The position numbers and the translations under genes were made by a program. A stretch of 63,477 nucleotides of DNA, filler included. It is 5 parts of 5 records of this genome, joined end to end, with 100 filler letters (N's around TTAATTAATTAA, not from the genome) between each part and the next. Parts side by side here need not be neighbours in the genome. Positions count along the whole stretch, not along the records: positions 36,040 to 42,543 come from DRR723986_5220; 4 more parts are not named here. One strand, 5' to 3'. The notes under the pieces were generated by a model, which was not told the DNA's origin, made no database searches, and was given only the letters and a program-made list of their open reading frames with translations. This document shows positions 38,706 through 42,643 of the stretch, in pieces; positions within the stretch are counted from its first letter, which is position 1, and each line of letters starts with the position of its first letter.

Positions 38706-39329
38706 TCAAACCTCCACCTGCTCCCTGGCAGTGCACTCTCGTACAAGCAAAAGAGCATGGCCGTCAGAGTAGTGCAGGCTTGGATGCGGTACGATGGCTC
38801 GACGATCCATCTCGCGAAAGCCCAGTGACGCATAGAGACGAAGTGCCGGCACATTCCTGTCGAAGCATATGAGTGAAACTCGCGTGAGACCTTGCGCGGC
38901 TGCAAGACGGTCGGCAAGGATCATCAGCTTTCGCGCGTACCCGCGACGGCGAAATTCCTGACGGACAGCCACGCCGGAAACATACAACGAGCCTGGATCT
39001 TCCAGCTCGAAGTAGGGCCTGAGGACTGGATCGGCCTCGGGTGTCTCGTCACTCTCCATCTTGAAGGCATGCAGCATGGCCACCACCTGGCCACCAATCT
39101 CAACCATGTGGCAATTCTGATAGGAAAACGCCGTGTTTTCCCGCGAATACCGCGATGCCCCAACCTCCAGGAGGTCCGCGCCGGGAACCCCGACGCGAGA
39201 CCAGATGTAAGAAGCAAGTCCATCTGAGGACATCAGGAAAAGCGAGGCGATTTCACGTGCGTCTGCCTTCGTGGCCGGACGGATCTGTTCGCTCCGTGTT
39301 TCGCCTTTCGATTGGACCGACATTTTCAC
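38706..39329 (-). CDS. GNAT family N-acetyltransferase
   Basis: IRPAT, LYVSGVAVRQEFRRRGYA, NVPALRLYASLGF. GTG overlaps the upstream TGA; ATG 39323 is an alternative start. Confidence 0.9.
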   Translation of the reverse strand: MKMSVQSKGETRSEQIRPATKADAREIASLFLMSSDGLASYIWSRVGVPGADLLEVGASRYSRENTAFSYQNCHMVEIGGQVVAMLHAFKMESDETPEADPVLRPYFELEDPGSLYVSGVAVRQEFRRRGYARKLMILADRLAAAQGLTRVSLICFDRNVPALRLYASLGFREMDRRAIVPHPSLHYSDGHALLLVRECTAREQVEV

Positions 39330-39613
39330 TTCACTTCTCCCGCGCTGACCTCATTGCACATGCCATCCCCCTTCGCCGCATCCAGCATGACAGCTGGAGC
39401 GGGTCTCAGGTGATGCAGCGCCCGGGTGTCACCGTTACGGATCACATGGCGCACGCTGTCGCGGTTCAATCCGATGTCGCGCAGTTCATGGTCCGACATT
39501 CTCTCCAGTGTCTGGATCAGGATGCGGTTCTTCCTGGCCCTGCGCCAACGTTCCAGAATACCGATCGCGTTCCTGCGACAGGCAATCCTGCCAACCATGG
39601 TCGAAACGGTCAT
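39326..39613 (-). CDS. DUF1127 family small protein
   Basis: WRRARKNR...LERMSDHELRDIGLNR; GGGAG RBS. Confidence 0.85.
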   Translation of the reverse strand: MTVSTMVGRIACRRNAIGILERWRRARKNRILIQTLERMSDHELRDIGLNRDSVRHVIRNGDTRALHHLRPAPAVMLDAAKGDGMCNEVSAGEVK

Positions 39614-39631
39614 TGTGATACTCCCCGTTCC

Positions 39632-40585
39632 TTACGCCCTGAGGGGCTGGTGGAGGCAGGTCTGCCCGATTGCGTCGACATGTCGGTGGTCGGTACCACA
39701 GCAGCCACCGAAGACCCGCAGGTTCGGCAGGACCGCCAGGAGGTTGGCATAGTCCCTGCCAAGTTCCTGCGGATTGCCGTCATCCAGCTCTTCAGCTTCA
39801 TCCAGCTCGGCGTGGCTCAACCGCGAAGCATTCGCGCGCAGACCCCGAATTCGCCGGGTCCAGTCCGCTCCTTCTTCCAGGACGTGCCGGAAGTGATCCG
39901 GGTGGGCGCAATTGATCATGTAGTAGGCGGGCGGGCAGTCGGCATCGAGCTCGGCGATCGCGTCCTTGAGCGATTGGCCTGTCGGCAGGTGCCCATCGGT
40001 CTCAACGGTGAAGGCAAGAGCCAACGGCACGTCCCGTTTCGCACAGGCCCGCGCTATGCCCATGGCTTCGCCGGCATGGGTCATGGTGATCGCGCTGATC
40101 ATATCGACCCCTGCCGCATCCAGCGTGGCGACCTGAACAGCGTGATAGTCCTCGGACTCGGCAGAGGACATCATGGTTTCGGGTGCGTAGCCATCTCCCC
40201 GGGGACCCATATTGCCGCTGATGACAAAGGGATGTTCGCCTTCGAACTCGGCACGCAGTTCGAAAAGCATTGCAACTGCGTCCTGGTTTGCATGCTTCAA
40301 TTCTTCGGCCGAATAGCCAAGACGGTCACCCCAGTCACGGCTGGCGCGCCAGGTCGCGCTGTCGAGAATGAAGCCCGTGCCCTGCGCATTCGCGATACGG
40401 GCGTAGCGTTCGTAGTAGCGGCGAAGGGCAGCGCGGCCTTCTGTTTCTTTCAAGGCATGAAAGGAAGCAAACAGTGGCAGGTCGATGCCATCATGAAAAA
40501 TCAGAGTTGTTTCGAGGCCACCATCGGTGAGCAGGCAGGCGTCACCGATCTGCGGCAGTTTATTGCGGTACTTGAAAAATTCCAT
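39632..40585 (-). CDS. Homocysteine S-methyltransferase family protein
   Basis: LTDGGLET, GNMGPRGDGY, Zn ligands NCAHP and GGCCGT. Confidence 0.92.
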   Translation of the reverse strand: MEFFKYRNKLPQIGDACLLTDGGLETTLIFHDGIDLPLFASFHALKETEGRAALRRYYERYARIANAQGTGFILDSATWRASRDWGDRLGYSAEELKHANQDAVAMLFELRAEFEGEHPFVISGNMGPRGDGYAPETMMSSAESEDYHAVQVATLDAAGVDMISAITMTHAGEAMGIARACAKRDVPLALAFTVETDGHLPTGQSLKDAIAELDADCPPAYYMINCAHPDHFRHVLEEGADWTRRIRGLRANASRLSHAELDEAEELDDGNPQELGRDYANLLAVLPNLRVFGGCCGTDHRHVDAIGQTCLHQPLRA

Positions 40586-41068: not shown

Positions 41069-41842
41069 TCATGACAGGGCAGCCCGGCCGGGCAAATGCG
41101 GCGTCGTGCGCAGTTCGATATCAAGCTCCGAGGCAAGGTCGAAGAAACGCCGGCGCACGCCCGAAGCGTAGGGGTTCAGCCCCTCGATCGCATCGAAAAG
41201 CTCCGGCGGATCGTGGCGAACCATTTCGATAGCCTCGTTGAGAAGGTCGAAGCTTCGGGTGGTGGTCATCCGGGGAAGCGGCCCCATCTTCACCAGCACC
41301 TTGGCAATCAAGTGGGTAAGGCCCTGGGACAGCGCGGCATCGCGATCATGCGCATCCGGTGTTGTTTCGAACACATCCAACCCAAGAGCCACCTTGAGAA
41401 AGGCGGCAACACGTTTGTAGCTTCGGCCTTTCAAAGGGCACAGTGCGATTTTCAGTCCCTGCAATCCGTTGCGAGCGCTTTGCGGTCCGAAAAGCGGATG
41501 GGTCGCAAGGATTTCGACATGTGGTGGCAGCAACTCCAGCATCAGACGAGCGGGCTCGACCTTTACCGAACCGACATCCAGCACCAGCGTATTCGGCCTC
41601 AGATGCGGCGCTATTGCACGCAGTGTTTCTTCCATGCAAGCCACCGGAACAGCGACCACCACGATCCGGCAGGCGGCGACCTCGGCAAGGTCCGCACTGC
41701 CATCATAACGCGGATCATGGATCAGCAGTTCGACATGAGAAGAAAGATGCTCGGCGATCAATCGCCCGAACGCCCCGTAACCGATAAGGCCCAGGGTGAG
41801 AGAGCGATGTGGTTTACATATTGCAGCTTGGAAAACAGTCAT
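41069..41842 (-). CDS. tyrA: Prephenate/arogenate dehydrogenase (TyrA family, short stand-alone)
   Basis: GYGAFG Rossmann motif, DVGSVK, THPLFGP, HDRDAALSQGLTH. Confidence 0.9.
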   Translation of the reverse strand: MTVFQAAICKPHRSLTLGLIGYGAFGRLIAEHLSSHVELLIHDPRYDGSADLAEVAACRIVVVAVPVACMEETLRAIAPHLRPNTLVLDVGSVKVEPARLMLELLPPHVEILATHPLFGPQSARNGLQGLKIALCPLKGRSYKRVAAFLKVALGLDVFETTPDAHDRDAALSQGLTHLIAKVLVKMGPLPRMTTTRSFDLLNEAIEMVRHDPPELFDAIEGLNPYASGVRRRFFDLASELDIELRTTPHLPGRAALS

Positions 41843-41950
41843 GACTTAACTCGGTGAATTGGCTGCAAGGCCGAGAGCTGTATACCGAGTCACAACCGCT
41901 GGCGATGCAGCGGTAAACAGACAGCAAAGTCCCTCCGCTAACTTGGCGGA
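41843..41950 (-). promoter_or_regulatory. Attenuator-like RNA leader with alternative hairpins
   Basis: mRNA segments UCCGC(1), UAGCGGA(2), ACCGCUG(3), CAGCGGU(4) allow 1:2+3:4 or 2:3 pairing. GACUCGGU/ACCGAGUU and UGUGACU/AGUCAUG can occlude the tyrA initiation region. Confidence 0.7.
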
Positions 41951-41988
41951 TAATAATAGTTTGCAGTGTTGTGCAGGACGTTGCTCAT
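41938..41988 (-). CDS. Tyr-rich leader peptide MSNVLHNTANYYYPPS (16 aa)
   Basis: ATG AGC AAC GTC CTG CAC AAC ACT GCA AAC TAT TAT TAT CCG CCA AGT TAG, ending 95 nt upstream of tyrA. Confidence 0.8.
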   Translation of the reverse strand: MSNVLHNTANYYYPPS

Positions 41989-41994
41989 GCTCTT

Positions 41995-42023
41995 GAGCTA
42001 GCAAGCCCGGTGGGACAAGTCAA
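41995..42023 (-). promoter_or_regulatory. Sigma70-like promoter implying a leaderless uORF transcript
   Basis: TTGACT-N17-TAGCTC, then 6 nt (AAGAGC), then the uORF ATG. Confidence 0.6.
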
Positions 42024-42157
42024 TGCGGCGCGATCATCTCAAAATGGCAACTTGTGTTGACCGTACAGGTAAGTGGCCGATAACATGGCAATTCAAACAA
42101 CCGTTTCCAGCGCGCCACCCAACGCAGCCGGCCCAGCGAAGATGAATTCAGCGTCCC

Positions 42158-42543
42158 TTAGTCGAAGTAGTTTACCCAACCGATAACTTTGCCGCTGCCG
42201 TCTTTGATTTCATCATTGAAACATATGCCATGAAGGGATCCAACGTTTGGCGACACGGATCGAGGAAACCTGTTCTCAACGACATTTTTCACCTGGGCGC
42301 CAAACGAGTGCCAGGCCAAGTCACCAAAATTTTTCGGTTTTGCCATCTTGGCACCACTCGCCCCACCTACGACCGATTGCATAAGCTCGTACGTTTGTTT
42401 GGCTTCTTCAGCCAGAGCCCTTTTCGCAGCACTGCGCGCCAGCGAGAGGCACACGCCGTTCTTTAATGTTTTATCGAAAATGATGACGTTCAGGCCGAAA
42501 TTCATCAACGCAATACCTTTAACGCCGGCGTCGTTCCCCAGGT
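42158..42543 (-). CDS. Hypothetical protein, 3' part (frame open to the contig end)
   Basis: ORF 42158..42508 extends to the contig edge. No recognisable motif. Confidence 0.5.
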
Positions 42544-42643
42544 NNNNNNNNNNNNNNNNNNNNNNNNNNNNNNNNNNNNNNNNNNNNTTAATTAATTAAN
42601 NNNNNNNNNNNNNNNNNNNNNNNNNNNNNNNNNNNNNNNNNNN
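42544..42643. other. Artificial contig linker
   Basis: N44-TTAATTAATTAA-N44. Confidence 0.99.

Follow-up and report, generated by a model that had tools for sequence, protein, structure and literature searches.

A conserved leader with a tyrosine-codon reading frame as a candidate translational attenuator of a second, plant-type tyrA gene in alphaproteobacteria

In a 63,477-nucleotide (nt) stretch of DNA, hereafter the window, a 16-codon upstream open reading frame (uORF) with three consecutive tyrosine codons precedes a gene for a TyrA-family dehydrogenase. All coordinates given here are positions in the window, and the features of the leader and of tyrA lie throughout on its minus strand. 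The stretch around the leader is a megaplasmid of the Roseibium aggregatum type, which in megablast matches 10 Roseibium/Labrenzia megaplasmids (407-540 kb) at 94.9-99.2% identity. Our comparative analysis leaves us in little doubt that the uORF is translated as part of a functional and widely conserved cis-regulatory leader. More specifically, we propose that this leader is a ribosome-mediated translational attenuator, which senses the supply of tRNA-Tyr and governs a second TyrA paralog; taken in full, we judge this mechanism to be likely, with a good measure of doubt attached. Its in silico support consists of the conserved promoter spacing, the ORF itself, the Tyr codons and all the helices, including an alternative helix designated 4:5. 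From these we infer the transcription start site (TSS), that the uORF is translated, that the ribosome stalls, in which direction tyrA is regulated and that the switch is kinetic.

The uORF of the window (41938-41988) runs from an ATG at 41988-41986 to a TAG stop at 41940-41938 and encodes the leader peptide MSNVLHNTANYYYPPS. Its codons 11-13 (41950-41958) are all TAT and constitute the proposed stalling site; they are followed by CCG CCA AGT and then the stop, after which 95 nt (41937-41843) extend to the ATG of tyrA at 41842. Upstream of the uORF lie a -35 box, TTGACT (42018-42023), and, after a 17-nt spacer, a -10-like hexamer, TAGCTC (41995-42000), ending 6 nt before the uORF ATG. A preliminary description of this DNA had pointed out both the reading frame and these promoter-like elements, and each is present in the sequence exactly as given there. 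The position of the TTGAC is shared by relatives, and related leaders have CTAnnn-like elements where the window has TAGCTC; a scan with an E. coli-type consensus does not call the window promoter because of its poor -10 element. In R. algicola only, an 18-nt tandem duplication that includes TTGACT (L002:3150-3190, equivalent to window 42010-42027) lies just upstream of the leader and results in two candidate -35 boxes.

The distribution of the leader was established from the gene that it precedes. An alignment of the TyrA protein was searched against one genome per species, and the best 80 of 486 confirmed relatives, all of them alphaproteobacterial, were retained. At 59 of these 80 protein-selected loci, spread over Hyphomicrobiales, Rhodobacterales, Acetobacteraceae and others, the leader is present, with a Tyr-Tyr pair in 50, a single Tyr in eight and no Tyr in one; the conservation of a Tyr-rich uORF among orthologues, which the preliminary description had named among the tests of its proposal, is thus borne out. 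The 50 Tyr-Tyr loci were those in which Tyr-Tyr, a few codons and a stop could be found within 330 nt upstream of the gene. The remaining 21 homologous loci lack the leader. They include the Brevundimonas homologues (L057-L068, L073), where the gene starts within a few bases of the stop of the upstream gene; these copies appear to be operonic, with the same paralog under different control in Caulobacterales. A tblastn search against plasmids returned 24 records, 14 of them at 34-65% identity, and six distant loci with an annotated tyrA start were inspected. Three Paracoccus plasmids have a uORF of 15-16 codons ending in Tyr-Tyr-Pro-Leu-Pro-stop about 100 nt upstream of the gene, and a Haematobacter plasmid locus keeps the leader layout with one Tyr; no leader was found at the Thioclava locus, where the gene is in an operon, or at the Phaeobacter locus (34% identity).

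A covariance model (CM) built from 62 seed leaders and searched against 89 sources recovers 65 true leaders (those at 59 of the 80 loci, that of the window and five at plasmid loci), three of which were absent from the seed. Tyr-Tyr is found in 55 of these, one Tyr in nine and none in one. Exactly one match falls in the 63-kb window; one antisense match of 20.6 bits was set aside and is not counted as a leader. When the model was run with laxer filters on four whole genomes, each of the four yielded a single leader, which always precedes the short tyrA paralog. A class-wide search under strict filters, with 19 candidates scored per genome, matched 2 of 151 genomes (the centre and one 28-bit match), and is to be read as a sample, not as a measure of absence. 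G063 has two 28-bit matches, one of which lies under a 589-aa ORF.

That the uORF is not a chance reading frame is indicated by the restriction of its pattern to a single place. ATG-(8-10 codons)-Tyr-Tyr-(3-4 codons)-stop occurs once on the two strands of the 63-kb window; in 578,532 nt of the 80 loci, scanned on both strands, it gives 55 matches (a tally of start positions rather than loci), each of them where the leader lies and none anywhere else, for which reason we rejected a chance ORF as an explanation. Among nine near-identical Roseibium/Labrenzia plasmids, 10 of 186 alignment columns vary between the promoter and the tyrA ATG (1/40 from the -35 box to the ATG of the uORF, 2/51 in the uORF and 7/95 in the remaining leader), as against 27 of 129 in the 5' portion of that intergenic region. 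The two variable uORF columns comprise a synonymous change (GCA/GCG) and a replacement of Ala by Thr.

The anatomy of the uORF is tightly constrained across the family, with its start, frame, length and stop kept in 63 of the 65 leaders. Counted over the 62 seed leaders, it has 16 codons in 43, 15 in 14 and 17 in five; it starts with AUG in 60 and GUG in two, and stops with UAG in 48, UAA in 11 and UGA in three. Between 9 and 11 codons precede the Tyr-Tyr pair and four (in 47 leaders) or three (in five) follow it, and the uORF stop is separated from the tyrA start by 87-112 nt. The two Tyr codons occupy columns 42-47 of alignment A3; UAU is used for the first in 51 of 52 cases, even in GC-rich genera such as Methylobacterium, while the second is UAC in 28 and UAU in 24. 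This bias at the first position hints that the nucleotide itself, or the speed of decoding, is under selection in addition to the amino acid. Of the run of three tyrosines emphasised in the preliminary description, the Tyr-Tyr pair proves to be the conserved core and the third Tyr to be lineage-specific. The additional pausing through Pro-Pro and EF-P suggested there does not hold for the family, as Pro-Pro occurs in few lineages. The residues after Tyr-Tyr vary between clades (APLT, PQLR, TLTT, PPFT, APSS, RPLT) with P1 pairing (see below) kept, and the N-terminal 10 residues are not conserved between clades.

Promoter and Shine-Dalgarno (SD) counts, taken over 63 leaders, bear on how the uORF is translated. 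TTGAC begins 35-39 nt before the uORF start in 61 of the 63, and an SD-like tetramer is found 4-16 nt before the start in none. This distance, together with a 17-nt spacer and a 6-nt -10 element, places the TSS at the AUG or within a few nt of it. The uORF is consequently predicted to be leaderless across the family, with transcription in the window starting at or next to A41988, which supports in silico the leaderless start put forward in the preliminary description. Contigs from 4 of the 14 RNA runs that contain the stretch span the whole region, and as assembled contigs they carry no information on start, strand or level; in one run, from a single study, a contig break and a change in depth fall within the uORF and are equally uninformative on these points.

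The four complementary segments of the leader RNA recognised in the preliminary description, as well as the pairing of GACUCGGU with ACCGAGUU, are all present and are contained in the minimum free energy (MFE) fold of the window sequence. Helix P1 (1:2; 41934-41950) joins UCCGC (41950-41946) to GCGGA (41938-41934). The Tyr codons sit directly 5' of its 5' arm, segment 1, and segment 2 begins with the G of the TAG stop (41938), so that the stop overlaps the 3' arm. Helix P2 (3:4; 41895-41914) joins ACCGCUG (41914-41908) to CAGCGGU (41901-41895); its core, CCGCUG/CAGCGG, is near-invariant across orders (at least 60 of 66 rows at several pairs), and a conserved linker rich in pyrimidines connects P1 to P2. 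Helix P3 (5:6; 41848-41891), formed by GACUCGGU (41891-41884) and ACCGAGUU (41855-41848), buries the weak tyrA SD of the window (GAG, 41852-41850); in every lineage its 3' strand contains the SD, and it often extends to the start codon. P3 is capped by an apical hairpin, GGC..GCC (41861-41872), which is kept across the alignment. The loop of this hairpin is also conserved, being of the GGC-UCGC-GCC type, or GCC-GGGC-GGC in Rhodobacterales (65-70% paired; columns 172-196 of alignment A4), and the relay proposed below gives no reason for its conservation.

Support for these helices comes from two kinds of analysis. The helices were written by hand and then scored on a plain MAFFT alignment made without structural fitting: P1, P2, P3 and the P3 apex have 70.3% of cells paired, compared with 65.0 +/- 0.6 after shuffling (0/500) and 37-43% when slid by 1-3 columns, and their covariation score is 0.227 versus 0.151 in the shuffles (0/500). 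Across the MAFFT and CM alignments P1 is 76-77% paired, with double changes at 6 of 8 pairs, and P2 is 84.5-85.1% paired, with double changes at 8 of 11. RNAalifold applied to the plain MAFFT alignment predicts four pairs of P2 and nothing else. A swap test on 46 representatives below 80% identity set the duplex energy of each sequence's own segments against that of segments taken from different sequences, with 2000 permutations. Native duplexes are stronger than swapped ones for P1 (-12.1 versus -10.4 kcal/mol), P2 (-15.2 versus -12.7) and P3 (-13.3 versus -11.3), with 0/2000 permutations reaching the native value in each case. As controls, nine segment pairs without a proposed pairing gave p-values of 0.06-1.0; among further ones, s0:s4 gave 0.0065. 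The CM alignment leaves P3 in several registers, and the support for P3, as for the two helices considered next, comes mainly from the swap test.

These two helices go beyond the segments of the preliminary description. In the first, 4:5 (41870-41903), segment 4, which comprises the P2 loop and 3' arm, is complementary to segment 5, the 5' strand of P3 that acts as the anti-SD; in the window 41903-41891 pairs with 41882-41870 in a duplex of -12.4 kcal/mol that excludes P2. Its swap test is as clear as that of P2 (-15.3 versus -12.5 kcal/mol, 0/2000; gain 2.8), which it equals in strength, and in several sequences (L017, L056, L010, L028, L088) it is locally the most stable hairpin. Double-sided changes occur at 10 of 10 pairs on the CM alignment, which was made without fitting to 4:5. 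Column 111 in P2 (UA 33, CG 12, UG 12) and column 171 in 4:5 (GC 23, AU 19) both covary with column 129 (A/G), a double covariation that marks a strand as having two partners. Where P2 is unusual in sequence (L012, L088 and L069), segment 5 has matching changes. The mutual exclusivity of 3:4 with 4:5, and of 4:5 with 5:6, is thus supported by covariation. The other helix, P0, joins the 5' end of the transcript, usually including the AUG, to the P1-P2 linker; in the window the beginning of the uORF (41976-41985) pairs with 41923-41932 at -13.0 kcal/mol, and across the family its swap test gives -10.8 versus -8.7 kcal/mol (0/2000), with many compensated examples.

P2 does not have the makings of an intrinsic terminator. 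At most three T occur in the 9 nt after it in 60 of the 65 leaders, and five or more in one; a terminator scan of the window calls none at P2. This paucity of T, along with the covarying helix that buries the tyrA SD, bears out the earlier suggestion of translational rather than intrinsic attenuation.

We therefore envisage the following sequence of events, which is drawn from the sequences and their predicted structures. Transcription would start at or next to the A of the uORF AUG to give a leaderless mRNA, on which a ribosome would translate the 16-codon leader. When charged tRNA-Tyr is plentiful, this ribosome would reach the stop codon and, since the stop overlaps the 3' arm of P1, would cover segment 2 as it terminates; P2 (3:4) and P3 (5:6) would then form and bury the tyrA SD and start, leaving the gene off, and upon release of the ribosome P0 and P1 would also close. 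When tRNA-Tyr is scarce, the ribosome would stall at the Tyr codons, covering segment 1 and leaving segment 2 free; 2:3 would pair, segment 4 would be freed, and 4:5 would capture the anti-SD strand, exposing the SD and AUG of tyrA and turning the gene on. The choice between these states would be set kinetically, during transcription, which is probable because P2 (-15.2 kcal/mol) is stronger than 2:3 (-10.2 kcal/mol).

Folding calculations lend this relay modest support. With segment 3 removed, which mimics its capture in 2:3, SD accessibility rises from 0.415 to 0.475, against 0.42 in a null with segment 4 shuffled; with segment 3 sequestered, the energy needed to open the region from the SD to the AUG falls from 8.5 to 6.9 kcal/mol (7.8 in the shuffled null), with 31 of 65 leaders becoming more than 1 kcal easier to open and six becoming harder. 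Equilibrium folding thus favours the relay across the family only modestly, and does not do so for the window sequence.

Several observations count against the proposed switch. The relay model of the window itself fails, with accessibility going from 0.39 to 0.38 and the opening energy from 3.4 to 4.8 kcal/mol; in this sequence the anti-SD strand would be held within the 8-nt loop of 4:5, a case that pseudoknot-free folding scores poorly. When only the ribosome footprint is imposed at equilibrium, SD accessibility is 0.41-0.43 in the stalled and 0.41 in the terminating state (Wilcoxon p 0.4-0.5), the lack of a difference being due to the greater strength of 3:4 relative to 2:3. The single-sequence fold of the window is unexceptional (z = -1.0; 32 of 200 shuffles fold as well). 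Only 50-55% of P3 is paired on both alignments, because its register differs between lineages. Helix 2:3 is 89% paired and near-invariant, so that covariation neither supports nor contradicts it, and its swap gain of 0.5 kcal/mol (p 0.0065) is not above that of the s0:s4 control (0.9). Of the stem covariation called for in the preliminary description, P1, P2 and P3 accordingly emerge with support, and 2:3 is not confirmable by this means. The sequences are related, which makes the permutation p-values inexact. On the side of the uORF, nine leaders have a single Tyr and one has none, and two lack an in-frame AUG or GUG: L084 (Novosphingobium, 1300-1461), with ACG in place of the AUG and three Tyr codons, and L096 (Falsirhodobacter, 1341-1485), with no in-frame start. 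These two may be decaying copies or may use a non-canonical start.

Other explanations divide according to which part of the switch they retain. One keeps the leaderless uORF and stalling at the Tyr codons as the sensor, and holds that the regulated step is Rho-dependent termination or mRNA decay within the leader or early tyrA, with SD unmasking secondary or absent. Untranslated mRNA is an established target of Rho, and polarity could add to translational control; the lack of an intrinsic terminator after P2, the pyrimidine-rich conserved P1-P2 linker and the modest modelled effect on SD opening, with none for the window, are all in keeping with it. However, the SD-burying helix is conserved and covarying, and segment 4 covaries with the anti-SD strand. 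The latter is hard to explain unless access to the SD is controlled, and therefore speaks against termination or decay as the regulated step, which we regard as unlikely. A different alternative retains the translated uORF and changes what it senses: the nascent peptide ending in Tyr-Tyr-x-x-x(-x) would be an arrest peptide responding to a small molecule, such as free tyrosine or arogenate, and not to the supply of tRNA-Tyr. TnaC, which senses tryptophan at the ribosome, provides a precedent. The fixed distance of 3-4 codons between Tyr-Tyr and the stop, the near-constant uORF length, the frequency of Pro among the two residues after Tyr-Tyr and the nine single-Tyr leaders, weak candidates for codon-supply sensing, would suit such a peptide. 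Yet the codons after Tyr-Tyr change the amino acid freely while keeping P1, which favours codon-supply sensing; the first 10 residues are unconserved between clades, and the location of the Tyr codons immediately 5' of segment 1 is the classical geometry of a codon-supply sensor. We find an arrest peptide very unlikely on these grounds.

The remaining alternative dispenses with the sensing role of the small ORF altogether, and takes the P2 palindrome (as DNA) or the folded leader RNA to be the binding site of a protein or ligand. What speaks for it is that the P2 core is near-invariant across orders beyond the need of a helix alone, an invariance that the several pairing partners of P2 also explain. 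A binding site would not explain why start codon, frame, stop and Tyr codons are all conserved; moreover, L012 and L088 have a different P2, compensated in both arms and in segment 5, and the leader matches no Rfam family. We consider this explanation scarcely credible. Ribosome-mediated sensing of tRNA-Tyr therefore remains our preferred reading, and a more elaborate form of it can be put forward tentatively, as something we would sooner doubt than assert. Here the leader would be a one-shot co-transcriptional sensor: P0 would close over the 5' AUG once the linker some 55-65 nt downstream has been transcribed, so that essentially one pioneer ribosome would sample tRNA-Tyr per transcript, and a seven-part relay would run via 2:3 and 4:5 to the SD of a plant-type arogenate dehydrogenase. 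On this account the leaders might form a purely translational, terminator-free class of attenuators, present in at least four alphaproteobacterial orders and spread on megaplasmids.

The putative regulated gene (41069-41842) encodes a 257-aa TyrA-family dehydrogenase of plant type (clade I-like), with a match to the Pfam family PDH_N (71.7 bits, E 6e-20). Each of the five leader-bearing genomes tested contains a pair of PDH_N genes: the canonical copy scores 139-146 bits, with frames of 311-336 aa, and the short copy preceded by the leader 61-78 bits. The window protein scores below every NCBIfam equivalog cut-off. Its best match in the PDB is soybean PDH1 (5T9F, E 4e-19), with the S. meliloti-type enzyme 4WJI behind it (E 2.4e-10). 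Asp211, invariant in seven homologues, aligns with chain position 222 of 5T9F, a chain numbering that may differ from that used in PMC5681985. In that study, an acidic residue at position 222 is reported to mark the arogenate-specific clade I TyrA enzymes, and a clade I enzyme of Ochrobactrum intermedium is reported to act, with NAD+, as a dehydrogenase of arogenate and not of prephenate (Schenck et al., 2017; PMC5681985). The start of the Brucella pseudintermedia orthologue (L040) coincides with the start codon chosen here, and its 90%-identity cluster includes a Brucella intermedia protein; the O. intermedium enzyme is not confirmed as the leader-preceded paralog, its accession not being among the 15 members listed for this cluster. 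By these sequence comparisons the regulated enzyme is probably an arogenate dehydrogenase, which would be made only when tyrosine is short. On a plasmid of Paracoccus sp. SMMA_5 (L014:3745-6690), the leader-preceded tyrA adjoins a MarR regulator and the tyrosine-catabolism genes hmgA and fahA, so that a spare gene for tyrosine synthesis and genes for its degradation are neighbours on one plasmid.

In the related plasmids the gene is annotated as a prephenate dehydrogenase and follows a co-directional gene for a 310-aa hypothetical protein after a 315-nt spacer. In the window this upstream gene is interrupted by a run of N at about 42540-42590 (X in the ORF translation), and the last 116 aa of its product match no Pfam family. 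About 480 nt downstream of tyrA are genes for a homocysteine S-methyltransferase family protein, a DUF1127 protein and a GNAT acetyltransferase (39326-40585, minus strand).

The leader has both clear parallels to and clear departures from known attenuators. In E. coli trpL, pheL and hisL, a short ORF has its cognate codons 5' of segment 1, and overlapping helices 1:2, 2:3 and 3:4 follow. The tyrA leader resembles these and S. meliloti trpL in having cognate codons 5' of segment 1, the 1:2/2:3/3:4 arrangement, a stop near segment 2 and a biosynthesis gene downstream. Unlike the classical attenuators, its 3:4 helix is without a U-tract and does not qualify as an intrinsic terminator, segments 5 and 6 would relay the signal to the SD, P0 is added, and tyrosine would be the amino acid sensed. 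Its proposed mode of action is therefore that of an attenuator, though not one that acts through transcription termination, and it is a member of no curated leader family. In the ermC and cat systems, a ribosome that stalls within the leader ORF causes the hairpins downstream to refold and so releases the SD that they sequester, as the stall proposed for the tyrA leader would do; unlike in the latter, the stall there is caused by a drug and the nascent peptide, and resistance genes are controlled. As to leaderless sensors, the S. meliloti rnTrpL transcript is called leaderless in PMC6614838, and a mycobacterial study describes polycysteine leaderless short-ORF attenuators with translational control responsive to amino-acid supply (Canestrari et al., bioRxiv 10.1101/834739). 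The tyrA leader shares with the mycobacterial system a (predicted) leaderless sensory short ORF, a run of cognate codons and a proposed translational mode of control. It differs in phylum, amino acid and sequences, without homology; in the fixed length of its uORF and position of its Tyr codons; and in that relief would be indirect, via 2:3 and then 4:5, instead of by a stalled ribosome on the SD duplex.

To our knowledge, the characterised textbook leader-peptide attenuators (Trp, Phe, His, Leu, Thr, Ile/Val) include no tyrosine member. Rfam 15 yields no match in the window at gathering thresholds, and at E <=10 the interval 41700-42200 returns two irrelevant 13-bit matches. In the full-text literature we found no tyrosine leader peptide or tyrA attenuator for Alphaproteobacteria, though the survey of Vitreschak et al. 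(2004) may list one. If our proposal is correct, the tyrA leader would fill the tyrosine gap in the set of attenuators with a conserved family that is amenable to testing, given that the 65 leaders include those of cultured Roseibium, Methylobacterium, Bosea, Ruegeria, Shimia and Paracoccus. It would be a clear proteobacterial case of amino-acid attenuation acting on translation and not on termination, and would combine a leaderless sensor ORF with a series of helices that exclude one another and whose alternative state can be read from covariation. As a compact element, the leader is also a candidate tyrosine biosensor for alphaproteobacterial hosts. For the biology of these bacteria, it would mean that a second TyrA, of plant type, is maintained in many alphaproteobacteria and turned on solely when tyrosine runs short, and a second TyrA under tyrosine control bears on the coexistence of the arogenate and prephenate routes.

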